The translations under genes were made by a program, and so were the position numbers. Below, piece by piece: positions 22,455-45,821 of a DNA stretch of 64,000 nt (position 1 is its first letter; each line of letters opens with the position of its first letter). The notes under the pieces are model-generated. The model saw nothing but the letters and a program-made list of their open reading frames with translations. It was not told the DNA's origin and ran no database searches. The stretch lies in IMG/VR virus record IMGVR_UViG_3300030098_005649; one strand, written 5' to 3'. Source of the DNA: a virus (Duplodnaviria; Caudoviricetes).

Positions 22455-23168
22455 ATGGGATTTCTTAATAATACTAGCCAGACTATTGATGCAATTCTCA
22501 CCAAACGAGGTAGGGAAAGACTTGCACAAACTGGCCAGTTAAATATAACAAAATTCGCATTAGCTGATGATGAAGTCGATTACGCTTTGTGGGATCCTTC
22601 ACATCCTAATGGAACAAATTCTTATGGTACGGTAATTGAAAATATGCCCGTACTTGAACCTGTACAAGACCAATCTTTATCATTGAGATATAAACTTGTC
22701 ACTCGTGCAGACGAACCTGAAAAATTAGCATTTATTGATTCTTCAGGATTAGAGTCTCAGACAATATCATATTTTCCAAATAATAGTGGTCAAAAATTTA
22801 CAGAGGCTCAATTGACAATTGGTCAAACACAAAATTCACCAGTTGATAGTGAGTCATATACCGTGACTGTTCAGAACTCAATTGTTTGTGTAATACCACA
22901 ACAGGCTGGAGTTACTGGAGATTTCAATCAGTATGCTGTAGGTGGTGCTCTTGCAAATGTACAAACCGCTCAAACTGTAAAAATTGCAGCTGGTACAACA
23001 TCATTTTCAGTTAGGTCTAAACCAATTCTGATAGGTGATACTGATGTAACAGGAAATAATGGTGGAAGTGGGTCAAGGTCTACTAACATTATTATACAAG
23101 GTGATTTATCAGGTGCAGTCTTCGTTACTTCTATAGAAGTACACGCTAAACAAGGTACAGCATTATAA
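22455..23168 (+). CDS. Tail/baseplate structural protein, paralogue of 23185..24018
   Basis: IDAILTKRGRERLA..ITKFALADDEVDY shared with the next gene. Confidence 0.6.
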   Translation: MGFLNNTSQTIDAILTKRGRERLAQTGQLNITKFALADDEVDYALWDPSHPNGTNSYGTVIENMPVLEPVQDQSLSLRYKLVTRADEPEKLAFIDSSGLESQTISYFPNNSGQKFTEAQLTIGQTQNSPVDSESYTVTVQNSIVCVIPQQAGVTGDFNQYAVGGALANVQTAQTVKIAAGTTSFSVRSKPILIGDTDVTGNNGGSGSRSTNIIIQGDLSGAVFVTSIEVHAKQGTAL

Positions 23169-23184
23169 AATAAGGGATAAGTAA

Positions 23185-24018
23185 ATGGGATTCATTTCAG
23201 ATGATAAATTAGTCGTAGATGCAGTAGTGACCAAAGTTGGTCGTACAATGCTTGCTGAAAATAATTTCTTTCCAGTAAAGTTTGCATTAGCGGATGACGA
23301 AGTAGACTATAATCTATGGGATGAAACTCATCCTCAAGGTCCTGATTTTTACGGAGCAATAATTGATAATATGAGAATTTTAGAGGCAAACCCAAATGGT
23401 GAACCTATTGAAATGCAATATAAATTATATACTCCAATTGACGAGGAAACTGGTCAAGTTGAACAAATAGAACAAGCACCACAAATAGAAGGTGTAAGTG
23501 AAACAGTAACACTAACTGGTGAAGATGATTTCTTAGACCTTACTCCATTTATAGGTGGTAGTGATGAGGCAGTTGATTTCATATTGGAAAATACAAATTA
23601 TGCATACTTAGAAGTAATAACAGAGGATGATGGATTATCTTCAGACTTTGAAAGTATTTTTGTATTCAACAATGGTACGGAAGTCACATCAGCACAATTA
23701 CTTGGTTCTGTAGACTTGACAGATTCTCTATTGACAGCATTAGGTTTACCTGGTGGTATTACAGGTATTTCACAAATATCACAATTAGCATCACCTGAAG
23801 AAGTTGAGAACTTCAAAGAGTGGGTAAATTCTGGATATAAGAATGACCCACCAAACCCAACTAAGGGAATGAAACCAGGTGTCAAACCACCTACACCAAA
23901 AGATATTCCTCAATTTCAAAGTGGATTGATAAGTACCGAAAAGGGAGAGGCTGATACTAAGTCTGATAACCTTACACCTCCAGGATTTGATAGTAAGGAA
24001 ACAGGAGGAGGAAAATAA
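23185..24018 (+). CDS. Tail/baseplate structural protein, paralogue of 22455..23168, with Pro-rich tail
   Basis: VDAVVTKVGRTMLA..KFALADDEVDYNLWD..HPQG. Confidence 0.6.
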   Translation: MGFISDDKLVVDAVVTKVGRTMLAENNFFPVKFALADDEVDYNLWDETHPQGPDFYGAIIDNMRILEANPNGEPIEMQYKLYTPIDEETGQVEQIEQAPQIEGVSETVTLTGEDDFLDLTPFIGGSDEAVDFILENTNYAYLEVITEDDGLSSDFESIFVFNNGTEVTSAQLLGSVDLTDSLLTALGLPGGITGISQISQLASPEEVENFKEWVNSGYKNDPPNPTKGMKPGVKPPTPKDIPQFQSGLISTEKGEADTKSDNLTPPGFDSKETGGGK

Positions 24019-24678: not shown

Positions 24679-25713
24679 ATGGCAACATTCAAAACAATAG
24701 AAAGTGTAGTACCAAGTCAAAGAAGTACAGTTTCCGCGGGTATATGGAGTGGTGGAACAGGTACACTTACTACATTTTTCATAAACACAACACAATCTGG
24801 ATCGAGTGGTAATTACTACTACGATGTTTATAAGGATAACCCAGCAACTGATACCACCGCAACCGCTCAGTTTGGGATTACTTATGGACATTTTCAAGGT
24901 AGTGGTTCATTCAACACAGTAGATGGTAATAATCCAAGTAAGGCAATTTACAGACAATTGTCAAATGTCTTATTATCTCCTGGTGGGAATCGTAGATTCA
25001 AAATCACCAAAGGTGGAACTGTAACAGACTTTGATGGTCTATATGCTATAGTACTGAATAGGTCTCGTATGAGAGAAAAGATGGATCCAGGTAATTGGGA
25101 ACTTCGTCTTTCTGGTAGTTTCGGAGCAACTGCAGCAGATAATGGTATCGTAAAACTAATTGACGATAGTAATGCTACAACAGACCCAAGTGTCGCAAGA
25201 ACACAAACGGTATTCAATGTTGTTAGTGGTTCTATTGCAAGTGGTGATTCTGTATTTGATAGTGATACCAATCCACTTGGTTTATTTTTTCCAAATCACG
25301 GAATTATTGTTCTATCTCAAGATGAGTTAGGTGGTAGATACGATGTATCTGAAATAAATCCAATCAATTTTGCAGCTTCTTCTTCAAATGCAAATGACAA
25401 TAATGCATTCAAATTATTTAGTCAAGTTTCTGCATCACAATACTTTGTGGCAAGAAGAGAAGAGTCTGTAAAATCTACACATTATTTCTGTAGGGTGAAT
25501 CACGATGAGTTCAATTATAGTTCTAATCCAACTTATCAAACTGGTAGTGGTGATTTTGTAGTACCATCTTTCAAACAAGACCCAAAGGCATACATAACTA
25601 CTGTCGGTCTTTACAATGAGAGTAATGACTTATTAGCTGTGGCTAAGTTGAGTCAGCCGATATTGAAATCAAGTGCGAGAGAAGCAGTAATAAAGGTACG
25701 ATTAGATTTCTAA
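24679..25713 (+). CDS. Tail/baseplate structural protein
   Basis: C-terminal YITTVGLYNESNDLLAVAKLSQPI..IKVRLDF shared with the next gene. Confidence 0.65.
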   Translation: MATFKTIESVVPSQRSTVSAGIWSGGTGTLTTFFINTTQSGSSGNYYYDVYKDNPATDTTATAQFGITYGHFQGSGSFNTVDGNNPSKAIYRQLSNVLLSPGGNRRFKITKGGTVTDFDGLYAIVLNRSRMREKMDPGNWELRLSGSFGATAADNGIVKLIDDSNATTDPSVARTQTVFNVVSGSIASGDSVFDSDTNPLGLFFPNHGIIVLSQDELGGRYDVSEINPINFAASSSNANDNNAFKLFSQVSASQYFVARREESVKSTHYFCRVNHDEFNYSSNPTYQTGSGDFVVPSFKQDPKAYITTVGLYNESNDLLAVAKLSQPILKSSAREAVIKVRLDF

Positions 25714-25731
25714 ACATAATAGAGGATTGAA

Positions 25732-26865
25732 ATGGGAGTATTTAGAACCGTTGATCCTGAAGACATAAATCTACGAGAGTACACAGCCCATAAGGATTTT
25801 TCTCTAACACAAAAAGATAGTGGTAGTGGAGTATTTGGACTACGAGGGATAACTGGATCTACTCATTTATTCGTTTCAGAATCTGCGGCAAGTCAGAGTT
25901 TTTTTAGTGGTAGTACAGAGTTGGCTACATTCTATGATATACCAACATACTATACGGTAAAACATATGTTTTATGAATATGACCAATTACCGAACAGACA
26001 AAGTATATCCAATAGATATGCACCATTTGTATTCAATCCACCAAATATGTTCTATCCTTATAATAGACCATCTGGCTCGTTACGAAATATCAAACCAATA
26101 CACGACCACATCAATGTAATCACATTACCTCAATCTCATTTTGGTGAAAATATAAAACCTAAATCGATAAAACTAACAGATAATTCTGGAGATTCGACAG
26201 TTACCATAAAAGATGATGGATTTGGTAACCTATATGATAACGATTTTTCTGCAAGTTTTGCAGCTGGTGAGATAGCAAATGGTTCGGGTTCTGTAATCGG
26301 TAATGTATTTTATGATGCTGGATTATTATGTTTTACTCATACTGGTTCAAGATATAGAAATATTGGATTGGGTGATGGAACAGATGGATTTGAAATAGAT
26401 TTTGAAGGTACTCAGAAAATATTTGAATACGAATACTTAGTTACTGCAAAACAAGGTCAATTCAATTCCACAAACAATCCAAGTGCGTGGACAAACAACA
26501 CAAATAATCCTACATCATCCATTGTAATGTCTTCTGGAGTTAGTTCGTCCTTATTAGATGAAGTAGATGAACTTACAGGTAAGTGGATATTAGATGGTAG
26601 AGTTCCAAATTTTTGGGGATATGACTCACAATCTTGGTTTCTAACTGATGATGGACAAACCTTTGACCATACCAAATATAGTGTTGATAATGTTGCAAAA
26701 GCATCTCTTAGGTCAGAATTGACCTCATCTGAATGGCAACCCTACATTACTACGGTTGGGTTATATGACGATGAGGGTAATTTATTAGTAATTGGTAAGA
26801 CATCGAAACCAATAAAGAATTTTGAAGACCTATCCCTATCATTTATCCTTAGATTCGACACATAA
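25732..26865 (+). CDS. Tail/baseplate structural protein, paralogue of 24679..25713
   Basis: C-terminal PYITTVGLYDDEGNLLVIGKTSKPI..FILRFDT. Confidence 0.65.
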   Translation: MGVFRTVDPEDINLREYTAHKDFSLTQKDSGSGVFGLRGITGSTHLFVSESAASQSFFSGSTELATFYDIPTYYTVKHMFYEYDQLPNRQSISNRYAPFVFNPPNMFYPYNRPSGSLRNIKPIHDHINVITLPQSHFGENIKPKSIKLTDNSGDSTVTIKDDGFGNLYDNDFSASFAAGEIANGSGSVIGNVFYDAGLLCFTHTGSRYRNIGLGDGTDGFEIDFEGTQKIFEYEYLVTAKQGQFNSTNNPSAWTNNTNNPTSSIVMSSGVSSSLLDEVDELTGKWILDGRVPNFWGYDSQSWFLTDDGQTFDHTKYSVDNVAKASLRSELTSSEWQPYITTVGLYDDEGNLLVIGKTSKPIKNFEDLSLSFILRFDT

Positions 26866-26877
26866 TAAAATTATATA

Positions 26878-26885
26878 ATATTTAT
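26878..26885 (+). promoter_or_regulatory. Putative late promoter ATATTTAT
   Basis: Intergenic; precedes the envelope gene cluster (GGAG SD, ATG 26924). Confidence 0.55.
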
Positions 26886-26923
26886 ATTAGAATGGGAAAT
26901 CCCATTTTATATGGAGAAAAAAT

Positions 26924-28216
26924 ATGAAATACGGTTTACTAATTACACTATTGACTTCTTCTTTGTTGTTTGGTGAAAACGAAATTTGGAAGTTTTTTAA
27001 ATACTCTACTGCGTATGGTAGTTTCAGTTTAAATGCACCACGATATCAAGACGATAGATTTGCAATAACTGGTGGATTATCTACAGGAGCACTTGAGGTA
27101 AAAAGAACTGAAAGAGAATTGAAACCTGATTTCCAAACATCTTTTGGTCTTCGTAAGATAGGTAGATTCCAATACGAACCAAAGAGAGGTGTAAAGTCTG
27201 CTGGTAAGGGTGGAACTTGGTATGATGGTTCAGAACAAAATGCAAATGAAAGTGCTACATTCGGACCTGTAAAGGGATGGGAGTATCTCATCAAATTTTC
27301 TGAGGGTAGACAATGGGGTAATGATTATAAAAACCAAGAGTTTTGGGTAAGATATATTGGACAATATCTAATGGCTAAAATTGGTTGGACAGATTTAGGT
27401 CTTGAAGATATTAGTTATGGTCAAGGTGATATTAGATTACATCTAACACCTGAGGTATTGGGAAACAAACTACATTTTTCTATTGGTGCTAAACACAGAC
27501 AACATCCTGTATATGGATTCGATGCTATGGTATTGGATACAACTTGGTATAAAGGACAATGGTGGAATTTTGCAGAAGATGCTTTTGGTATCGATGATAA
27601 TATGTGGTATGACCCAACAATGCAAGATGAAGACGGAAATTGGATTCATCAAGATTTATATGAAGTAGATCCTGTAACAGGTGAACTTAGACTCATAGAA
27701 GGTGACGGCCCTTTTTGGAATGAAGGTGGACAATATTGGGGACACGATTGGTTGTGGAGAGATGAGAATGGTAGAATATTTGCATATACCGATAGAGAAT
27801 ATTTCTTATATCATTTTCCTGGTATGTTAGAGGAATATGTAGATGGTGTAAAGAAAGACTTAGGTTATCAGAGTGAAACATCTTTAGTATTAGGTATTGA
27901 TTTTTATCATTATGGTGAGAATTGGTGGATACATACTTGGGGTAATTGGATGCCTGTTCATTATGGTCATTCAAAACACGCATACCATAACGCAGCTCAT
28001 TACCAAACTCACTTAGAAGAAGGTAGACCTGCTCATAAATTTATGTATATGGAGCCAATGTGGCATGATTGGAATGATTATGATGTTGGTGCTATATTTG
28101 GTGTAAAACTAAAAGACAACTTAGGAGTATTTACTGAGGGTAGATATTTATATTATTGGGAACGACCAGCATATGATGTGAAGTTTGGTATAAACTATCA
28201 ATTTGTAGGTTGGTAA
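26924..28216 (+). CDS. Secreted Trp/Tyr-rich protein, predicted outer-membrane beta-barrel
   Basis: Sec signal peptide MKYGLLITLLTSSLLFG; alternating amphipathic strands; C-terminal YDVKFGINYQFVGW beta-signal-like end. Confidence 0.6.
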   Translation: MKYGLLITLLTSSLLFGENEIWKFFKYSTAYGSFSLNAPRYQDDRFAITGGLSTGALEVKRTERELKPDFQTSFGLRKIGRFQYEPKRGVKSAGKGGTWYDGSEQNANESATFGPVKGWEYLIKFSEGRQWGNDYKNQEFWVRYIGQYLMAKIGWTDLGLEDISYGQGDIRLHLTPEVLGNKLHFSIGAKHRQHPVYGFDAMVLDTTWYKGQWWNFAEDAFGIDDNMWYDPTMQDEDGNWIHQDLYEVDPVTGELRLIEGDGPFWNEGGQYWGHDWLWRDENGRIFAYTDREYFLYHFPGMLEEYVDGVKKDLGYQSETSLVLGIDFYHYGENWWIHTWGNWMPVHYGHSKHAYHNAAHYQTHLEEGRPAHKFMYMEPMWHDWNDYDVGAIFGVKLKDNLGVFTEGRYLYYWERPAYDVKFGINYQFVGW

Positions 28217-28229
28217 ATAGGAGAATCTG

Positions 28230-28301
28230 ATGTCCGAATGTGGATGTAAAGACTGTATTTGCAATGGTGGATGTATGAATTGCAAATGTTGTAAGTGTTA
28301 G
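28230..28301 (+). CDS. Metallothionein-like micropeptide MSECGCKDCICNGGCMNCKCCKC (23 aa, 9 Cys), absent from the ORF track
   Basis: AGGAG SD at 28219-28223, ATG 28230, TAG overlapping the next gene's SD; fills the whole intergenic gap. Confidence 0.75.
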   Translation: MSECGCKDCICNGGCMNCKCCKC

Positions 28302-28310
28302 GAGATAAAA

Positions 28311-28925
28311 ATGAATCACGAAGAAGTATATAATGTAGTAAGAACGATTTGTGGCTCAATATTGTTATCAACAATGTTTTTGATGTCAAGTTGTGAGGAC
28401 GACAAAGTAGAAGAACCATTAGTCGAAAGTATTGAGATGTGGGTAAATGGTGCAGAGATTGTAGCTCGTGAATATTACGAGAGTATAACCTCATATGGAG
28501 CATCCTCAGTACAAGAAGATGGTTCTATAAAAAAAGTATTTGTATTACACTTCCAAAGGGAAGATGGTAGAGTTACACCTGAGAAAGAACATTACGCTTT
28601 GATTATGTATGATAATGATGGTGCAGATAATGGACAACTGATAGATGAAAAATTGTACATAGGTGGAACAGCGGTTGATTCACTTAGACCTGATTTACTT
28701 GAAAGTACAAGTGGTAGGGTAACATTAGAGATTGTTGGTCTATCTGATTTTACAGAATTTGGTCAAGGTGCAATCACTAAGTATGAGGATGGACTTGTTG
28801 ATGGTATGGTAGATGGTTACTTCTTCAATCCTTACAGAAATGAAATGCAACACGGTATAATTATTTTCGAGAACTTAGAAGTAGGTACAGATCCTGAGGC
28901 TACTTTTTATCAAGGAGTTTATTAG
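28311..28925 (+). CDS. Lipoprotein
   Basis: Hydrophobic stretch ending in lipobox-like LMSS-C followed by EDDK. Confidence 0.7.
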   Translation: MNHEEVYNVVRTICGSILLSTMFLMSSCEDDKVEEPLVESIEMWVNGAEIVAREYYESITSYGASSVQEDGSIKKVFVLHFQREDGRVTPEKEHYALIMYDNDGADNGQLIDEKLYIGGTAVDSLRPDLLESTSGRVTLEIVGLSDFTEFGQGAITKYEDGLVDGMVDGYFFNPYRNEMQHGIIIFENLEVGTDPEATFYQGVY

Positions 28926-29602
28926 TGAGTGATGGTGTCAAATTAGGACAATTGTTATGTGATGCTGATATCATCACAAAGAGACAATTGAGTAAAGCCT
29001 TACAAGAACAAGTCAAAGGTCGTAAAGGGACTATTGGTGAAATTCTTGTAGATATGGGTTTTTGCTCATTTGATGACATTACAGATGCCTTGATGAACTC
29101 TTCAACAGATACTAAACAACACGAAGAGAAACACGAGGAGATTCATAAAGAACCAATTCAACCTGAAATGGTTACAGGACTTCCACCAAATAAACCTGAA
29201 CCTGTAAGAGAAGAACCAAAGGAAGAAGAACCAATAGAAGTATCCGAAGAAAAGATTATGGGTACAAAGTTCACTATGTCTTTACAAACATTAGGAGCTT
29301 TAGTTGCTTTATTGGCAAGTGGTATCGGTGGATACTATATGTTACTACAAGAAATAGAAGAAGCTAAAAATTTACCAGAACCACCATCTATTGAATCTAT
29401 ATTTGGTGATGAGTATCCATCTAAACCTGATGGACATAACTGGCCTCGTTCCTACGAACAATATAAAACACAGGTCGGTGGTCTTCAAAAAGATATGGAC
29501 GAAGTATATGAATACATTGAGGAGTTTGAAGAAAAAATAGAAGATTTAGAAAAATTAGTATCCAACCTTAGAGTTGAAGTTGCTAAAAAGAAAGATAAAT
29601 AG
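28925..29602 (+). CDS. MshEN-like domain + Pro/Glu linker + TM helix + coiled coil
   Basis: KLGQLLCDADIITKRQLSKALQEQ...TIGEILVDMGFCSFDDITDAL tandem motif; TM LGALVALLASGIGGYYMLL; heptad C-terminus; GTG start. Confidence 0.65.
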   Translation: MSDGVKLGQLLCDADIITKRQLSKALQEQVKGRKGTIGEILVDMGFCSFDDITDALMNSSTDTKQHEEKHEEIHKEPIQPEMVTGLPPNKPEPVREEPKEEEPIEVSEEKIMGTKFTMSLQTLGALVALLASGIGGYYMLLQEIEEAKNLPEPPSIESIFGDEYPSKPDGHNWPRSYEQYKTQVGGLQKDMDEVYEYIEEFEEKIEDLEKLVSNLRVEVAKKKDK

Positions 29603-29611
29603 GAGTTATTT

Positions 29612-29986
29612 ATGAGATACTTATTGGGATTGTTACTACTTCTTTCTGTTACTTTAGGTCAAGTAAATGATAAGAATTTCAAAGAAACAATAAATGGTGG
29701 ATTGGTCGTAGTGGTAGTGACAGCAGAATGGCAAGAACAAGACTTTGATAAGGACATCCTAAAAGGTGTCAAGGGATATCAAGATTGTGAAATAGTTACT
29801 GTAAAAAGTGAGGACGCACCAAAGGTTGTCAAGAAACTTCGGTTCAGAAACTTTCCATCATTAGCTTTATTTTACGATGGCTCTAAAAAAGAAACTTGGA
29901 AGGCTGATATGGATGGTGAATTGGATATTGACAATAAAGATATAAAAGGTGCCATTGATGATGTATTAGCGGAGGATGTATTCTAA
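29612..29986 (+). CDS. Secreted thioredoxin-fold protein lacking CxxC
   Basis: Signal peptide; VVVVVTAEW replaces WCxxC; cis-Pro loop NFPSLALFYDG retained. Confidence 0.7.
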   Translation: MRYLLGLLLLLSVTLGQVNDKNFKETINGGLVVVVVTAEWQEQDFDKDILKGVKGYQDCEIVTVKSEDAPKVVKKLRFRNFPSLALFYDGSKKETWKADMDGELDIDNKDIKGAIDDVLAEDVF

Positions 29987-30330: not shown

Positions 30331-31184
30331 TGTATGAAGTAATAAAAAAAGTTGGTAACAAATATGTACTCTACCCAAAGAAAGGTGGGAAAAGATTAGG
30401 TACACACAATACCAAAAAGGCTGCAAGAAACCAAGAAAAGGCTGTAAAGGCTAGTAAGTATGAACATATAGTCGTAGAGAAAACTGGATGTGATTGTATG
30501 TATGTTAGTGTCTATGAAAGAGTTGATGAAAATCAATGGAGTAAAAAATATAAAAAGAAAATTAGTTGTTCCAATCCAAAAGGATTTAGTCAGAAAGCAC
30601 ATTGTGCTGGTAGAAAGGCAAGACAACGAGGTGAGAAAACTATTTCAAAATCAGTAAGTGAAGGAATAAAATATCATTTAGAAAATAAAATTCCATTCCA
30701 CGATAATATATACAGAATGTATAGTGAAAATTACTTCAGATTTTTCAACGAGTCAAGAAAAATTTATAAAAAAGGTAAGTTAGAAAATCTACATTGGTTT
30801 GATGAAGAGTTACTAAAAACTGATTTAGGTAAGGTTGGTATCTACGAGGGTAAAAGAGTACCATTAGATATTCCTATGAAAGAAGCTGAATATCGAGGTC
30901 GTAAAGTAAATCTGAACAAACCAATGAGACAATCAAGTGGTAAAAAATTTAAAGTTTATGTAAAAGACCCAAAGAGTGGTAATGTTAGAAAAGTAAGTTT
31001 TGGTGCATCTGGAGGTGGTGGTTCTTTATCAGTAAAACTCAAAGACCCAAAAGCTAAAAAGGCATTCAAAGACAGACATAATTGTGAACAAAAAAAGGAC
31101 AAAACAAAAGCTGGATATTGGGCCTGTAGGTTACCACGATATGCAAAATCACTTGGATTGAGTGGTGGGGGACAATGGTGGTAA
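30330..31184 (+). CDS. Basic multi-module hypothetical protein
   Basis: Concatenated modules NQWSKKYKK..CSNPKGFSQKAHC, GIKYHL.., AEYRGRKVNLNKP..YWAC. Confidence 0.65.
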   Translation: MYEVIKKVGNKYVLYPKKGGKRLGTHNTKKAARNQEKAVKASKYEHIVVEKTGCDCMYVSVYERVDENQWSKKYKKKISCSNPKGFSQKAHCAGRKARQRGEKTISKSVSEGIKYHLENKIPFHDNIYRMYSENYFRFFNESRKIYKKGKLENLHWFDEELLKTDLGKVGIYEGKRVPLDIPMKEAEYRGRKVNLNKPMRQSSGKKFKVYVKDPKSGNVRKVSFGASGGGGSLSVKLKDPKAKKAFKDRHNCEQKKDKTKAGYWACRLPRYAKSLGLSGGGQWW

Positions 31185-31453
31185 GTCCGTATAAAGAATA
31201 TCCAACATCAAATGGATTTATACGAATGTTTGAACCAAATGTAAATGAATCTGAATTGGTTTGGCATAGAGACAAAAAAGATAGAAAAGTTTCGGTAGTA
31301 AAAGGTAAAGGTTGGAAATTCCAAATGGATAATGAACTACCAGTAGATTTGAAAATCGGAGATGTATTTGAAATAAAGAAAAATATATTTCATAGATTAC
31401 ATCAAGGTAAAGATAGACTTATATTACATATAAAGGAGTACGATGGAAGTTAA
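31175..31453 (+). CDS. Small cupin-fold protein
   Basis: LVWHRD...W.FQMD..P..L..GD.F.I....FHRL two-His cupin pattern. Confidence 0.6.
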   Translation: MVVSPYKEYPTSNGFIRMFEPNVNESELVWHRDKKDRKVSVVKGKGWKFQMDNELPVDLKIGDVFEIKKNIFHRLHQGKDRLILHIKEYDGS

Positions 31454-31757
31454 GAATATGATGACCAAAGACCCTCGTCTAAATCAAAAACATTTTATCA
31501 ATACTAAATTAGTAGAGATAATGGAATACAGACAATCACGGAAGTGGTATGTGAGTATTGCTGTTGTGGGATTGTTTTCCTTTATATTAGCACTTATGAT
31601 TTTCTTTATGGCTCAAGGTAAGGATGTTACTGAGGGATGGAAAGAAATTTTATTATTGATGTTAGGTGGATTTGTAGGTTCGTTTGCTAAAGTCATTGAC
31701 TTTTGGTTCAACAACCAAGAGAATGATAACAAGTTATTAGAACACGCAGATGACTAA
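31443..31757 (+). CDS. Two-TM membrane protein, holin candidate
   Basis: Two hydrophobic helices; LMLGGFVGSFAKVIDFWF motif. Confidence 0.5.
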   Translation: MEVKNMMTKDPRLNQKHFINTKLVEIMEYRQSRKWYVSIAVVGLFSFILALMIFFMAQGKDVTEGWKEILLLMLGGFVGSFAKVIDFWFNNQENDNKLLEHADD

Positions 31758-31893
31758 ACATCTAAAAGAATCTAAAATGGGATATTGGGAACATTGGTAT
31801 CGTGCAATAAAACTAAGTGGGGCATTATTTATACACGCTTGGTTACCTGATGTACTTACCACATATGCAAGTGAGACACTAAAAGATGACTAA
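31750..31893 (+). CDS. 47-aa small protein MTKHLKESKMGYWEHWYRAIKLSGALFIHAWLPDVLTTYASETLKDD (DUF6356-like), absent from the ORF track
   Basis: Overlaps both neighbours by 8 nt; HL....Y.EH......ALF.HA.LP.....AS pattern. Confidence 0.65.
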   Translation: MTKHLKESKMGYWEHWYRAIKLSGALFIHAWLPDVLTTYASETLKDD

Positions 31894-32263
31894 AAGAATA
31901 ATGGAAAGAATTGACTACCTTGATGTGGCCCAACAATTCGTAAAAAAATATAAACTAAAATCTAAAGTAGTATTTGTGAACACAAAAGACTATGGTGATT
32001 ATGTTGTAGAGACAGACGAAATACAATTACGAAGAAGTTATCCAAGTGTCAAAGAATTTTTGATGACCGTATTACACGAAATACATCACGCACTAATGGC
32101 ACAAAGACACGGAAAAAGAAAGTTTTTAAAAATGTACAACCAAGCTGGTACTATGGCAGCTTATAGAGGATTGAACCCACACGATGATAACAAGTGGGAA
32201 GAGAAGGCTGAGTCATTTGCACGAAATGAGTTAAAGAAATATCAGTCTTTTCTAAAAAAGTAG
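31886..32263 (+). CDS. HExxH zinc metallopeptidase-like protein (ImmA/IrrE/SprT-like)
   Basis: TVLHEIHHAL followed by WEEKAESFA (third Glu ligand pattern). Confidence 0.65.
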   Translation: MTKRIMERIDYLDVAQQFVKKYKLKSKVVFVNTKDYGDYVVETDEIQLRRSYPSVKEFLMTVLHEIHHALMAQRHGKRKFLKMYNQAGTMAAYRGLNPHDDNKWEEKAESFARNELKKYQSFLKK

Positions 32264-32793: not shown

Positions 32794-33720
32794 ATGAATC
32801 AGTTATTATTATCGTTCCTAAATAAAGTGATAGGTAATAATGGTAGACCACTAAAGAAACAAAATGAATATATGTTTTGGTCACCATTTGTATCACATCA
32901 TAAACCTAAATTACAAATAAACATAGTTACTCAGAAGTGGCATTGTTGGGTTAGTAATGAGGGTGGTCGTAACTTTTATCAATTACTAAAAAAGTTAAAT
33001 TCATCAAGAGGTTATTATAAAGAGTTATCCGAAATACTCGATGATGATTTTTATACCTATTCAGACGAAAAACCACAAACCGAAGAAGTACTAACTTTAC
33101 CAAAAGAATATAAAACCATTTGGCCTAACTTTATTGATAACATTTTAGGTAATAAGATTTACCGATATCTACAAAGTAGGGGAGTTGAGGCTGAAGAAGT
33201 ACTGAGATATAGAATTGGATTTTGTCAAGGTGGATTGTATGATAATCGTATAATAATTCCAAGTTATGATTCAGATGGTAAACTAAATTATTTTGTAGGT
33301 AGAGACATTGATAATTCTAAACTAAAATATAAAAATCCACCTGTATCCAAAGATGTGATTGGATTTGAATTATTTATAAATTGGGATTTACCAATTGTAT
33401 TATGTGAGGGTGTATTTGATGCAATTGCAATCAAGAGGAATGCAATACCTTTATTTGGTAAAACTATACCAAGAAAATTACTAAAGAAAATAATAGAAAA
33501 TGGTGTTAGTAAAATAACAATAGTATTAGATAGTGATGCAACTATAGATTTGGTAAAACTAACACAGAAACTAAAATCCTATGGAGTGGAATGTAATATA
33601 GTACCATTGAAAAATGGTGACCCAAGTGAAATTGGTTTTGAAAAAATTACAAGGAAAATAATGAACTCATCTTCTCTAAAGTTTATAGATGAAGTAAAAT
33701 TCAAAATGGATTCAATATGA
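32794..33720 (+). CDS. DNA primase (Toprim, gp61/DnaG-like)
   Basis: WHCWVS, NRIIIP, LCEGVFDAIAI, LDSDA Toprim motifs. Confidence 0.88.
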   Translation: MNQLLLSFLNKVIGNNGRPLKKQNEYMFWSPFVSHHKPKLQINIVTQKWHCWVSNEGGRNFYQLLKKLNSSRGYYKELSEILDDDFYTYSDEKPQTEEVLTLPKEYKTIWPNFIDNILGNKIYRYLQSRGVEAEEVLRYRIGFCQGGLYDNRIIIPSYDSDGKLNYFVGRDIDNSKLKYKNPPVSKDVIGFELFINWDLPIVLCEGVFDAIAIKRNAIPLFGKTIPRKLLKKIIENGVSKITIVLDSDATIDLVKLTQKLKSYGVECNIVPLKNGDPSEIGFEKITRKIMNSSSLKFIDEVKFKMDSI

Positions 33721-36700
33721 TAAATAAAAAAGTAAAAGTACCTTTTCGTAAACTAAAACATATACATCATATTTCAGATATACAAATTAGAAATCTGAAA
33801 AGACATAAAGAGTATAATGAAGTATTTGAAAGGACATATGAAGAAATAAGAAAAAATAAAGACAATTCAGTTGTTTATATTGGTGGTGATATAGCTCACT
33901 CAAAAACCGATATGAGTCCTGAGTTGATACAAATGTTATCGGACTTATTTGTAAATCTGGCAGACATATGTCCTACAATTTTGATTGCAGGTAATCACGA
34001 TTGTAATCTAAATAATCGTTCTCGATTGGATGTACTTTCCCCAATAGTAAATAATTTACAACATCCTAATTTACATTATTTCAAAAATACTGGTGTGTAT
34101 AAAGTTGCTGATGTATCTTTTGTGGTATGGGATTGTTGGGATGATGAAAAAGATTTTATACTTGCTAAAGATGTAGAGGGTGATACTAAAGTAGTACTAT
34201 TTCACGGAACTGTAGATAGTTCAAAAACCGATTTGGGTTATCACTTACCATCCGATGTGAAAATATCTAAATTCAAAGGATATGATTTAGGATTACTTGG
34301 TGATATACATAAACGACAATTTCTAAATCGAAAGAAAACAATTGGTTATTGTGGTTCATTGGTACAACAGAATCACGGAGAGGGATTGAGTCACGGATAT
34401 TTACTATGGGATGTACCAAAGAGAAAATCCAAATACATAGAAATACCAAATGACTATGGTTATTATACATTGGATATTGAGAATGGTAATGTTCCAAAGG
34501 TAGATGATATGCCAAAGAAAGCAAGATTGAGATTGAGAGTGTCTGATACCACTCCATCTGATTTGAAAAAGGCACTCACATACATACATTCCGAATATGG
34601 TGTACACGAAATCACGATAAACAAAGTTGGTGGTATAACTACTGAAAAGGTAAGAGGTCAAACTATCGAGGTTGGTGATATTGGTGATACTGATTATCAG
34701 TTCTCATTGATTTCAGAGTATCTTGAACAGAACTATGCTATGGACGAAGAAACCTTGTTGAGAGTAAAGAAGATAAATGAGGAAATAAACTCACAAATAC
34801 CAGAAGAACAATATCAAAGAAATGTAAATTATAAATTGAAGACATTTGAATTTGATAATATGTTTAGTTATGGAGAAGGTAACAAAGTTGATTTTACAAA
34901 ACTAAATGGTATTGTGGGATTGTTTGCAAGTAATGCAAGTGGTAAGTCTTCATTATTAGATGCTTTATCTTTCTGTTTATTTGATACATCATCAAAAGCA
35001 TTCAAAGCGGATTCGGTATTGAATACAAGAAAAGATACATTTCATTGTAAGGTAAATTTTGAGATTGATGGTCAAGATTATTTTATTGAGAGAACAGCTA
35101 AAACTGGATACAAAGGGCATGTCAAGGTAGATGTAAACTTTTGGACTATCGATGATTCAGATGAAATAGTTAGTTTGAATGGAGACCAAAGAAGAACAAC
35201 AAATGTAAATATTAGAAAAGTTATTGGTACATATGAAGACTTTGTATTGACTGCAATGTCATTACAAAATAACTTTACTGTTTTTATTGATAAGACTCAA
35301 AAAGAAAGAAAAGACTTATTGGCTCAATTTATGGGTATTAGTATTTTTGATAAATTGTATGTCAAGGCTTCTGAGGAATCTCAAGATGTAAGAGTATTGT
35401 TGAAAAACTTTAAACAGACAGATTATGAAATAGAACTAAATAGAATAAAAGACGATTATAAAATATTCAACAAAACTTTGAAAGAGTTAAAATCTGAAAG
35501 AGAAGAACTGAAAGTATCTAAAGATAAAATAGATACTAAGATAAAAACATTGATGAAAGATATACAGAAAGTAGATACTAATGCTGTGGATATAGATTCA
35601 TTGAAAGAAGAAAAACAGAAGTTGGTTGAGTATGTAGACACATCAATCGATACTGTTACTGAATTTCAAGGTTCATTATCATTACTTTCATCAACAGAAA
35701 AACAATTACAGACTCAAATTCTCATATATAATAAAGAGAAGACTAATGAGAATTATGCAAAACTAATAAAACTTGAAGAAGATAAGTCAGGTCTAAAAGT
35801 AGAGATTGATAAACTAAAAATTGAAGTTAGAAATAAACTTGATAAATTAGAAAAATTGGGTGACTTGGAATATGATTCCGAATGTTCTTATTGTATGAGT
35901 AATCCATTTACCTTAGATGCAATTGAAACAAAAGATAAACTACAATCAGACAGAGAAAGAGCTGGTGAATTGGTAAAGTCAATTGATAGTGTAGATGACC
36001 AACTTGTAAAGTCTTCTATTTTTAGAAATAAGAAAGACGAATTAGAATCTAAGATAATAGAACTTGAGGGTGTACGAAATGAAATTGAAAAATCAAGAAA
36101 CTCTTCCGAATTGTTAGAAGAAAGAATTGAGAATTCAAAGGAAAGAATTAGTTCTGTTGAATCAAAGATAAGTCAATACTATATACAAAAAGAAACAATA
36201 GAATCTAATAAAAAGATTGAAGACCAAGTAGACCAATATACTACTGAGTTGGATAATCAAGTATATCAACTTGATATGTTAGACCAAAAGATTACAGACT
36301 TGAGTGGACAAATACAAGTTCTAAAATCTCGTAAGAAAGAAATACTCAACAATATAAAGAAAGTAGAAGAACTTGAAGACAAGTATCAGGCATACGAATA
36401 CTATCTTGATTCTGTGAAAAGAGATGGTGTACCATATGAGTTGATTTCAAAATCACTACCAACTATCGAGGGTGCTGTAAATGAGATATTAGCACAGATA
36501 GTTGATTTCTCAATTATATTTGAGATGGATGGTAAGAATATAAATAACTATATCGTATATGATGATGATAGAGTATGGCCATTAGAGTTGTCGAGTGGTA
36601 TGGAAAAGTTTTTGAGTTCATTGTCAATGAGAGTTGGACTAATGAGTGTTTCTAATCTACCTATGTGTAACTTTTTGGCAATCGATGAGGGTTGGGGAAC

Positions 36701-36863
36701 TATGGATTCAGATAATCTAAACTCAGTTTATAATCTGTTTCAATATCTCAAAACTCAGTTTCAGTTTACTTTGATAGTATCCCACATAGATACGATGAGA
36801 GATGCAGTTGATACTTTATTGGAAATCAAAAAAGAAGAAGGATTTAGTTCCGTAAAAAATTAA
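33717..36863 (+). CDS. Fused Mre11/SbcD nuclease - Rad50/SbcC ATPase (gp47-gp46 fusion)
   Basis: HISDIQ, GGDIAH, AGNHD, LGDIH; Walker A SNASGKSS, CSYC zinc hook, LSSGME signature, Walker B IDEG, SH; one 1048-aa ORF. Confidence 0.9.
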   Translation: MINKKVKVPFRKLKHIHHISDIQIRNLKRHKEYNEVFERTYEEIRKNKDNSVVYIGGDIAHSKTDMSPELIQMLSDLFVNLADICPTILIAGNHDCNLNNRSRLDVLSPIVNNLQHPNLHYFKNTGVYKVADVSFVVWDCWDDEKDFILAKDVEGDTKVVLFHGTVDSSKTDLGYHLPSDVKISKFKGYDLGLLGDIHKRQFLNRKKTIGYCGSLVQQNHGEGLSHGYLLWDVPKRKSKYIEIPNDYGYYTLDIENGNVPKVDDMPKKARLRLRVSDTTPSDLKKALTYIHSEYGVHEITINKVGGITTEKVRGQTIEVGDIGDTDYQFSLISEYLEQNYAMDEETLLRVKKINEEINSQIPEEQYQRNVNYKLKTFEFDNMFSYGEGNKVDFTKLNGIVGLFASNASGKSSLLDALSFCLFDTSSKAFKADSVLNTRKDTFHCKVNFEIDGQDYFIERTAKTGYKGHVKVDVNFWTIDDSDEIVSLNGDQRRTTNVNIRKVIGTYEDFVLTAMSLQNNFTVFIDKTQKERKDLLAQFMGISIFDKLYVKASEESQDVRVLLKNFKQTDYEIELNRIKDDYKIFNKTLKELKSEREELKVSKDKIDTKIKTLMKDIQKVDTNAVDIDSLKEEKQKLVEYVDTSIDTVTEFQGSLSLLSSTEKQLQTQILIYNKEKTNENYAKLIKLEEDKSGLKVEIDKLKIEVRNKLDKLEKLGDLEYDSECSYCMSNPFTLDAIETKDKLQSDRERAGELVKSIDSVDDQLVKSSIFRNKKDELESKIIELEGVRNEIEKSRNSSELLEERIENSKERISSVESKISQYYIQKETIESNKKIEDQVDQYTTELDNQVYQLDMLDQKITDLSGQIQVLKSRKKEILNNIKKVEELEDKYQAYEYYLDSVKRDGVPYELISKSLPTIEGAVNEILAQIVDFSIIFEMDGKNINNYIVYDDDRVWPLELSSGMEKFLSSLSMRVGLMSVSNLPMCNFLAIDEGWGTMDSDNLNSVYNLFQYLKTQFQFTLIVSHIDTMRDAVDTLLEIKKEEGFSSVKN

Positions 36864-42668: not shown

Positions 42669-43151
42669 ATGTTAGTAAATTTCGATGAAATAATTGAAGT
42701 CGTATTACATCACGAGGGTGGATATGTAAACGACCCAAAAGATCCAGGTGGAGAAACTAATTTTGGTATAGCCAAAAGAAGTCATCCTGATGTGGATATC
42801 AAGAACCTCACAAAAGATGGGGCAAAAGAAATCTACAAAGAACACTATTGGGATAAAAATAAGGTAGAATCTTTACCATTACAACTCAGACACATTTATT
42901 TTGATATGTGTGTGAATCAAGGTAAGGGTAGGGCTGTAAAAATATTACAAAGAGCAGCTAATGCAAAGGGTGCTGAATTGAAAGTAGATGGTGGGTTAGG
43001 ACCTAAAACAATTGGTGCAATATCTGATTCCAATGTAGAGTTAGATAGAGTTAGGGCATATAGAATCAAATACTATGCTGACTTGGTAACTCGTAGACCA
43101 GAATTGGAAAAATTTTATTTTGGTTGGTTCAAGCGAGGATTAGAAGTATAA
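42669..43151 (+). CDS. Endolysin, glycoside hydrolase family 108 with C-terminal PG-binding region
   Basis: HEGGYVNDPKDPGGETNFGI; DGGLGPKT; FYFGWFKR. Confidence 0.92.
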   Translation: MLVNFDEIIEVVLHHEGGYVNDPKDPGGETNFGIAKRSHPDVDIKNLTKDGAKEIYKEHYWDKNKVESLPLQLRHIYFDMCVNQGKGRAVKILQRAANAKGAELKVDGGLGPKTIGAISDSNVELDRVRAYRIKYYADLVTRRPELEKFYFGWFKRGLEV

Positions 43152-43202
43152 AAAAATATTATACTGATATTTATAAATGTAACTCATTATAGGGAAAATT
43201 AT

Positions 43203-43529
43203 ATGTCTGCATACAAACAATTTTTTACAAAAGCATTGAAGAAATTTGGAATAAAATCTATCAATGATATAACACCTGCAAAGAAAAAAGAATTCTTCAA
43301 TTACATTGATAAAAATTGGAAGGGTAAGAATGAGAATATGTATGAAAATATGTATGACGATTCACAAAAACAATTGGCTATTTCACGAATAGGAATGTTT
43401 GAGGATAATATCAAAAAATCCATAAAAAGTATAGCCATAAGAGATAAGAAAAAGGCTACAGAAATAATGAGACTTTATAAAAAACATATTATAGAATTTA
43501 AACTTGGTGTCCAAAAGGTACTCAATTAA
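43203..43529 (+). CDS. Hypothetical T4-like head-region protein
   Basis: YKQFF.KALKKFG......KKKEFFNYIDKNW module; ATATTTAT at 43167-74. Confidence 0.6.
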   Translation: MSAYKQFFTKALKKFGIKSINDITPAKKKEFFNYIDKNWKGKNENMYENMYDDSQKQLAISRIGMFEDNIKKSIKSIAIRDKKKATEIMRLYKKHIIEFKLGVQKVLN

Positions 43530-45611: not shown

Positions 45612-45821
45612 ATGCAATTTTTTAGAGAAATGCTTTCAAGTGATGCAAAAATTTCAAGTAAGAGGTTTGTTGGTTTTATGGCTTTTGCTATGTTGATAGC
45701 AAGTTGGGGAGCTGATACCTTTTCTTCATTTGAAGTGAAGGATAAAATTTTAGAATGTTTTATGTACATATCAGTAGTTGGACTTGGAGTTACTGCAGCT
45801 GAAAAATTTGGGAAAAAATAA
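45612..45821 (+). CDS. Two-TM membrane protein, holin candidate (69 aa)
   Basis: GGAG SD before ATG 45612; SSKRFVGFMAFAMLIA and ISVVGLGVTAAEKF. Confidence 0.5.
   Translation: MQFFREMLSSDAKISSKRFVGFMAFAMLIASWGADTFSSFEVKDKILECFMYISVVGLGVTAAEKFGKK

Follow-up and report, generated by a model that had tools for sequence, protein, structure and literature searches.

Two-component spanins, as known from lambda (Rz/Rz1) and T4 (PseT.3/PseT.2), combine a type-II inner-membrane protein carrying a helical periplasmic domain with a partner in the outer membrane; their genes are neighbours of holin and endolysin genes, and their action is presumed to be the last step of lysis. In a survey of 677 phages, 13% had no spanins, among them RM378 and phages of Croceibacter and Bacteroides, and, in its authors' words, 'an OMP could act as an o-spanin', an OMP being an outer-membrane protein (Kongari et al. 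2018, PMC6139136). In the present study, we analysed a locus at positions 26878-29986 of the IMG/VR virus record IMGVR_UViG_3300030098_005649, whose 64,000 nucleotides are referred to here as the window. Its core is a conserved triad of genes for a predicted outer-membrane beta-barrel (B), a predicted inner-membrane coiled-coil protein (C) and a secreted thioredoxin-fold protein (T). We read this triad, with a probability of roughly 40%, as a late envelope-spanning lysis module that probably disrupts the outer membrane and in which an OMP takes the role of the o-spanin.

With the two-component spanins the triad shares the pairing of such an inner-membrane protein with an outer-membrane component and the presumed task; a position beside holin and endolysin genes applies to most of its loci in two distant lineages and to some of its own lineage, but not to the window. 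The short forms of C from distant lineages (91-103 aa) have almost the length of T4 PseT.3 (117 aa). In contrast to spanins, whose outer component is a small lipoprotein, the outer component of the triad is a barrel of about 14 strands (340-445 aa) that is encoded upstream, so that the outer-membrane gene comes first; a third, periplasmic protein of thioredoxin fold is obligatory, and C has no periplasmic Cys. Phage proteins sent to the host outer membrane are also known from lambda (Lom, Bor) and T5 (Llp), with bor located beside the lysis cassette and llp beside the receptor-binding gene. These are, however, single genes for an 8-strand barrel or a small lipoprotein without dedicated periplasmic or inner-membrane partners, and B is unrelated to them in sequence and much larger. 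Uncultured aquatic phages resemble the phage studied here in carrying envelope-directed genes of unknown purpose, beta-barrels included: 1,603 OMPs were found in huge phages, in a study that also cites the blocking of LamB by Lom (2026 preprint, bioRxiv 10.64898/2026.10.24.761521), and pelagimyophages carry a CsgG/CsgF curli-like cluster (PMC7029224). Neither paper describes a triad of barrel, transmembrane (TM) coiled-coil protein and thioredoxin-fold protein or a position in a lysis cassette, and the five proteins encoded at our locus, i.e. the triad, a lipoprotein and a Cys-rich micropeptide, had no match to a Pfam curli family. While phage-encoded barrels are known as a class, the B-C-T triad itself is undescribed in the literature and databases searched. 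This agrees with an earlier note on this DNA, made from its letters alone, which knew of no characterised phage system with such a layout; we found none in PHROGs, Pfam, isolated phages or the literature searched.

The conservation of the triad was assessed in 175 loci fetched around three divergent barrels. All 126 loci with at least 2.5 kb of DNA downstream of B contained the three genes together and in the order B, C, T, and nine of them were confirmed by inspection; a check for such co-occurrence in related phages had been proposed in the earlier note. The median gap from B to C was 13 nt and that from C to T was -7 nt; C and T usually overlap, and T always adjoins C. The barrels fell into three clusters at 60% identity plus two singletons, and the clusters share about 25-35% identity. 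The flanks of the triad differ completely and comprise tail-like genes, PhoH or giant proteins of 2,000 aa. The invariant order of B, C and T within entirely different surroundings suggests that the triad moves as a module. The five-gene envelope unit that had been postulated is therefore reduced to a three-gene core, whereas the lipoprotein, the Cys-rich peptide and an MshEN-like domain of C are specific to a lineage. The predicted distribution of the proteins over the layers of a diderm envelope was borne out by the barrel, lipobox, signal peptide, TM helix and MshEN homology, as far as sequence and models can indicate. A complex prediction with alignments of B (residues 20-430), C (141-225) and T (18-124) gave a score of 0.00, which counts neither for nor against binding.

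B (430 aa; 26924-28216, + strand) has a signal-peptide-like N-terminus and, as read from the sequence, a C-terminal aromatic beta-signal (FGINYQFVGW). An AlphaFold2 (AF2) model derived from 36 homologues with a predicted local distance difference test score (pLDDT) of 73 contains approximately 14 long strands, and a large variable insert occupies residues ~195-315. Structural comparisons (Foldseek against PDB and the AlphaFold database AFDB; exhaustive VIA-align) retrieved outer-membrane barrels only, with Z scores of up to 10.8, for example OmpG (Z 10.8), TamA (10.4), LpxR (9.3) and OMPLA (8.8). A barrel is thus predicted by signal peptide, beta-signal, model and structural matches alike; its assignment to a specific OMP family is another matter, because Z scores of 8-11 extend over many unrelated families (porin, OmpG, FadL, OMPLA, LpxR, Omp85) and none stands out. 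Since B follows tail-like genes, it was also considered as a virion structural protein, an idea rejected in view of the signal peptide, the beta-signal and the barrel fold. A large protein collection held 665 homologues of B (222 cluster representatives), all of them metagenomic or viral and none named. No relative was detected in 50,697 isolated-phage records by tblastn with three divergent barrels, pattern scans of 185,579 species genomes with two barrels yielded no confirmed relative, a scan of viral contigs with P0135 remained without a match, and neither Pfam nor PHROGs contained a matching family. In one locus (L029:10001-12545), two tandem barrel paralogues, 77% and 45% identical to B of the window, precede the genes for the lipoprotein, C and T.

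The gene of C (225 aa; 28925-29602, + strand) starts with a GTG that overlaps the stop codon of the lipoprotein gene (TAGTG). Conserved across the lineages is its core (29096-29602, + strand), which consists of a juxtamembrane motif, one TM helix (~residues 117-140), the motif LQxxIxEAKxLP and a C-terminal, presumably periplasmic coiled coil. Residues E108, T122, I144, A147, L150 and P151 are invariant in an alignment of 19 diverse sequences. A hydropathy scan revealed one hydrophobic span, the conserved motif is amphipathic, and the tail is rich in heptads with weak matches to coiled-coil families. Because of the cytoplasmic MshEN-like domain and the charge distribution, C would be a bitopic type-II protein of the inner membrane with its N-terminus inside. 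Together with one TM helix and a helical periplasmic domain, this predicted orientation gives C the layout of an i-spanin. C had no spanin or holin match in PHROGs, and its short forms yielded nothing significant in PHROGs or Pfam.

T (124 aa; 29612-29986, + strand) combines a signal peptide with an invariant cis-Pro (P82) and an aromatic C-terminus. As a single sequence it matches PF00085 with an E-value of 5e-4, and its profile retrieves thioredoxins and PDI from PDB, with TXNDC5 at 2.9e-20 and bacterial thioredoxins at about 1e-10. The position of the CxxC motif reads EWQEQD, EWNAGN, FNKxN or similar; none of 19 sequences has CxxC.

An indication of the function comes from the neighbours of the triad, whose lysis genes were called with hidden Markov models (HMMs) from Pfam- or PHROG-supported seeds. 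In two distant clusters, 45 of 76 and 23 of 29 loci have a recognised endolysin or holin no more than 2.5 kb away from the triad; in the window's own cluster this applies to 8 of 41 loci, and these eight have a holin at that distance. Contigs of about 164 kb (L106 type) have the gene order tm2, B, C, T, endolysin (PG_binding_1 + Amidase_2) and holin (Phage_holin_4_1, PF05105), tm2 standing for a protein with two TM helices. In those of the L069 type, tm2, B, C and T are followed by a secreted 182-aa protein, an endolysin (Peptidase_M15_3, phrog_894) and a holin (GTA_holin_3TM, phrog_3427), and in those of the L087 type a DUF5675 protein and a phrog_3427 holin come before B, C and T. A phrog_33083 endolysin-like protein is encoded after T in L103 and L152, and in L020 and L036 of the own cluster a phrog_3427 holin starts 14 nt after T. 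The families of these lysis partners are diverse and unrelated to one another, which is what a mosaic lysis cassette would lead one to expect. A lipoprotein candidate within 4 kb was absent from 92 of 109 distant triad loci, as judged by a crude all-frame lipobox regular expression, and the only credible lipoprotein of the window is the accessory one described below.

Further small proteins accompany the triad. tm2 adjoins it in about 55 distant loci, and the window has a homologue at 45612-45821 (+ strand; tm2 HMM, E 7.9e-9), 2.4 kb after an endolysin with GH108 and PG_binding_3 domains (42669-43151, + strand; Pfam E 9.7e-27 and 8.8e-14; phrog_315 E 1e-50). In the window's lineage, a 104-aa protein with two TM helices, g31443 (31443-31757, + strand), is a positional partner of the triad: its homologue is located directly before B or after T in six related loci and 0.7-2.9 kb away in others. 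No homology between g31443 and tm2 was detected (BLASTP E 0.08; hhalign probability 1%), and the two are treated as positional analogues only. In L069 (9661-10209), L087 (9656-10183) and their relatives, a secreted or anchored protein of 169-196 aa with the motif FVECTxGxYPxEIxW is encoded after T and before the M15 endolysin. The majority of the P0139-type loci have this protein, which matches neither Pfam nor PHROGs and may be a further member of the cassette. Directly after the holin of the 164-kb contigs (L106:12534-12959), there is a gene for a small protein of 141 aa, possibly an 8-strand OMP in the same cassette: it has a signal peptide, and its C-terminus (LQLGFGLKF) resembles a beta-signal. 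A search of isolated phages with two of the endolysins for relatives lacking the triad showed that the endolysin families are widespread and offered no informative synteny.

The vicinity of endolysin and holin is the usual place of spanin genes, and a type-II inner-membrane protein with a helical periplasmic tail beside these two genes is how i-spanins are recognised; C is therefore read as i-spanin-like. We infer a physical B-C-T complex, late timing and disruption of the outer membrane. C would act like an i-spanin, while B would supply the outer-membrane anchor that is usually supplied by the lipoprotein o-spanin, and T would serve either as a connector in the periplasm or as a chaperone of B. 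Disruption of the outer membrane by this assembly would follow the removal of the peptidoglycan mesh by the endolysin. Among the functions that had been listed for the locus in the earlier note, lysis control is favoured by the genomic context; within it, we prefer the execution of outer-membrane disruption to a control of its timing.

Several points weigh against this reading. B, C, T and the lipoprotein have no similarity to any spanin, holin or other lysis family of PHROGs, or to a spanin family in Pfam. The triad of the window is 12.7 kb away from the GH108 endolysin, and no known holin was found in the 64 kb; a scattering of lysis genes is a feature of T4-like genomes. Since accessory 'moron' genes, lambda bor for example, can likewise be neighbours of lysis cassettes, adjacency alone is no proof. 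The periplasmic part of C is short (~55-85 aa) and has no Cys, whereas most spanins rely on periplasmic disulfides (PMC6139136). We know of no precedent for membrane fusion in which a transmembrane barrel forms the outer anchor, and RNA data at the contig level cannot give timing. Finally, B is a well-conserved protein, with 73-100% identity inside its lineage, and has the large, variable and indel-rich insert which, given a periplasmic N-terminus and standard OMP topology, would be an extracellular loop and suits a surface-exposed function. We do not go beyond the probability given above because the complex is hypothetical, the endolysin is distant, the unusually conserved B has an insert that would be outside the cell by standard topology, and accessory genes also lie beside lysis cassettes.

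The presumably exposed insert would suit an alternative, according to which B, together with a surface lipoprotein where present, blocks or hides a phage receptor in the manner of lambda Lom and T5 Llp, so that the infected cell is protected from superinfection and progeny is kept off debris, with C and T assembling or anchoring B. Phage-encoded OMPs are common and exclusion is their usual interpretation, and in the window's lineage the module follows structural genes resembling those of tail fibres. The lipoprotein (204 aa; 28311-28925, + strand) fits in with this as well, as it is highly variable and has acidic residues behind its Cys. Its lipobox LMSSC is followed by EDD; C28 is invariant in 15 diverse homologues, nearly all of which have acidic residues after the Cys. 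The AF2 model (pLDDT 84) is all-beta with a lipocalin/YceI-like fold and weakly resembles AFDB clusters of lipoprotein, YceI-like, DUF5689 and DUF4843 proteins (TM-score 0.4-0.5); Foldseek against PDB gave no match at E <= 0.001, and PHROGs and Pfam nothing significant. Members of this family were identified in 51 loci, either between B and C or after T, with identities of 36-100%. The protein, which has ~180-240 residues and a folded domain, is nevertheless an optional component: it belongs to 44 of 149 triad loci, and while it is present in 35 of 41 loci of the own lineage (30 between B and C, 5 after T), only 9 of 108 distant loci have it. Its absence from about 90% of the distant loci speaks against receptor masking. 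Moreover, the strict linkage of three genes across very distant phages, two of them for partners in the periplasm and the inner membrane, is unlike known exclusion proteins, which act alone, and in some distant loci the triad is inserted between holin-like and endolysin genes and not at the edge of the cassette. For these reasons we consider exclusion an unlikely function of the triad, though the likeliest of the rival readings.

In addition to its core, C of the window's lineage has an MshEN-like cytoplasmic N-domain (28925-29095, + strand; phmmer and profile matches), a lineage-specific addition. The first ~57 residues match only the MshEN N-domains of PilF, PilB and MshE (phmmer E 8e-7; profile E 1.7e-14; all 11 PDB matches), whereas the Pfam family PF05157 was not matched. 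MshEN reportedly consists of two 24-residue motifs with the consensus RLGxx(L/V/I)(L/V/I)xxG(L/V/I)(L/V/I)xxxxLxxxLxxQ, as Wang et al. are said to have described in 2016. Compared with the ATPases MshE, PilB and PilF, C keeps most hydrophobic positions of the two tandem motifs, but the fusion partners of the domain are a TM helix and a coiled coil and not an ATPase. Motif 1 has K/R-L/I-G and keeps the Gln, while its position 10 is invariably Asp where Gly would be expected; in motif 2, T, K, S or A replaces Arg and the final Gln is gone. The 91-103-aa forms of C in distant lineages lack this domain as well as the acidic, proline-rich linker behind it. Nine of 25 own-lineage loci contain three to four genes for type IV pilin- or pseudopilin-like proteins (GFTLIEL N-termini, Pfam N_methyl) within 6 kb downstream of T, for instance L001 (14884-16834), L014, L016, L021 and L023, while there are none in the distant lineages or in the window; together with the MshEN-like domain, they provide a hint of a link to type IV filament machinery.

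In a further conceivable function, B, T and C would relay, in this order, an envelope signal such as superinfection or the state of the envelope, and C would modulate the holin and hence the time of lysis, similar to the T4 antiholin RI acting on holin T; the MshEN-like domain, whose homology is genuine, would add a cytoplasmic input of cyclic di-GMP (c-di-GMP) in this lineage. Like this T4 pair, the triad combines a single-pass membrane protein (N-in/C-out) with a secreted periplasmic partner in a T4-like phage. The lysis-cassette context is an argument for control of lysis timing as it is for outer-membrane disruption. The invariant cytoplasmic juxtamembrane motif of C, with the invariant residues E108 and T122 as parts of E-x-(S/G)-E and T-K-(F/V)-T-like motifs, is a possible contact site for a membrane partner, and the small two-TM proteins tm2 and g31443 are tightly linked to the triad. 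However, the triad has no homology to RI, RIII or holin T; in T4, the genes t and rI are not adjacent, and the pair works without an outer-membrane partner. The cytoplasmic part of most versions of C is limited to ~17 residues and lacks an MshEN domain, the Asp in motif 1 and the missing Arg and final Gln in motif 2 depart from the consensus, and a regulator would be expected to be dispensable or patchy rather than invariant. A role in timing therefore appears even less likely than exclusion. The proposal in the earlier note that the complex is gated by c-di-GMP or metal finds no support and could not be a general mechanism, because both the MshEN-like domain and the Cys-rich peptide are absent from distant lineages.

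The Cys-rich micropeptide (23 aa with 9 Cys; 28230-28301, + strand; AGGAG upstream) is likewise a lineage-specific accessory. Cys-rich micro open reading frames (micro-ORFs) were found only in the window's own lineage, in 18 distinct versions of 14-43 aa; 821 kb of DNA from this lineage contained 28 of them, 27 at most 150 nt away from B and one elsewhere. Like the constant order of the triad, this clustering goes beyond chance. A Shine-Dalgarno (SD) motif precedes 24 of the 27 B-adjacent ones. Its likeness to metallothionein is one of composition alone (CxC/CC, no aromatics); there was no match to a metallothionein family in Pfam (best E-value for any relative 0.49) and nothing significant in PHROGs. 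This composition, the general-porin-like size of the barrel and structural neighbours of B that include OmpG, Tsx and NanC among the best would be compatible with auxiliary uptake, with B as a porin or channel for the import of nutrients or metal, T as a periplasmic binding protein and the Cys-rich peptide as a cytoplasmic metal sink. We regard this as improbable, given that the peptide is confined to one lineage, that T has lost the cysteines which could bind metal, that C has a single TM helix and no inner-membrane transporter is linked, and that the lysis-gene context would be left unexplained. The lipoprotein, the micropeptide and the MshEN-like domain may instead tune the module, and the hypervariable micropeptides flanking B constitute a separate, unexplained family of small phage proteins.

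With respect to expression, the earlier note had described five contiguous genes at 26878-29986, and all five proved to be real, co-directional ORFs at that place (26924-29986), each either with GGAG/AGGAG 6-10 nt upstream or coupled to the preceding gene. The coupling within the proposed unit holds, but the unit does not end at 29986, since TAATG or overlapping starts continue to at least 32263. Between 29986 and 32263, six further small genes are coupled to T in this way; the chain includes a DUF5872-like basic protein, a cupin-like protein, the two-TM protein g31443, a DUF6356 peptide and a zincin-like HExxH protein, and its genes have no fixed position beside the triad in relatives. A late promoter motif had also been claimed upstream of the genes. 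The motif TATTTATA is indeed present at 26879-26886 (+ strand), 38 nt upstream of the start of B, as a possible late-promoter element whose promoter function is only inferred. It differs, however, from the late consensus of T4 as read on the + strand: TATAAATA, the canonical late promoter of T4, was not found on this strand upstream of B, and TATTTATA is its reverse complement. The window has 14 copies of TATTTATA on the + strand and six on the - strand, including copies at 43168, 51049, 56563, 60500 and 61285 that lie 11-108 nt upstream of genes at 43203, 51060, 56608, 60529 and 61393. Some of the genes preceded by the motif adjoin those of terminase and major capsid protein, i.e. genes of head morphogenesis and packaging, and TATTTATA may be the late-promoter element of this phage group. 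A consensus scan for sigma-70 promoters and terminators performed no better than on shuffled sequences.

Contigs from RNA libraries (four marine metatranscriptome runs from as many studies) correspond at 90-100% identity to parts of B, C, T and the lipoprotein gene and also cover the micro-ORF together with the adjoining ends of B and the lipoprotein gene; such contigs indicate presence only, neither timing nor strand, and may derive from DNA carry-over. That no contig of these four runs covers, for instance, 29298-29558 or 31125-32168 proves nothing.

The window is part of the genome of an uncultured marine T4-like myophage. It encodes a T4-type portal protein (PF07230, E 3e-74), a large terminase and a Gp23 major capsid protein, its GC content is ~33%, and nearly all of its long ORFs are on the + strand. 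The nearest isolates by portal protein are Flavobacterium phage vB_FspM_immuto and Microcystis phage Mel-JY01 (both 55%), and Rhodothermus phage RM378 is a more distant match (32.5%). Near-identical DNA is contained in many marine metagenomes and in IMG/VR contigs (L007, L009). A host among the Bacteroidota is suggested by three features: signal peptides that end in AQ or SQ, relatives among the Flavobacterium phages, and the acidic residues behind the Cys of the lipoprotein, which resemble the surface-export signal of Bacteroidota. A tRNA that might have served as a hint of the host was not found in the window. Directly upstream of B there are two paralogous gene pairs, probably structural (22455-24018 and 24679-26865): g22455 and g23185 are 47% identical over 88 residues, and g24679 and g25732 have a C-terminal TTVGLY...K motif in common. 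The copy number of these paralogues varies in relatives (up to 4-5), as expected of a fibre or host-recognition region. Further downstream, one ORF of 1,048 aa (33717-36863) unites a calcineurin-like phosphoesterase domain (Mre11/SbcD-like) with AAA_23/SMC_N domains (Rad50/SbcC-like); its T4 equivalents are the separate proteins gp47 and gp46.

Spanins are not recognisable in roughly one of eight phages that infect diderm bacteria (PMC6139136), and how these phages breach the outer membrane is the question that the triad could answer. Bacteroidota phages and numerous marine ones are among those without a spanin, and the triad is a concrete, widespread and virus-only candidate. Somewhat more tentatively than its role in lysis as such, we propose that it represents an unrecognised class of three-component, spanin-like outer-membrane disruptors, in which a beta-barrel replaces the lipoprotein o-spanin, in abundant uncultured marine phages, probably of Bacteroidota, and that it explains lysis by some of the 'spanin-less' phages. 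If its function were unrelated to lysis, the triad would be even further from anything described. Even if it is not a lysis device, it would still be a conserved, dedicated route by which ocean phages install a beta-barrel of their own in the outer membrane of the host, which bears on superinfection, receptor landscapes and the envelope biology of abundant marine bacteria.

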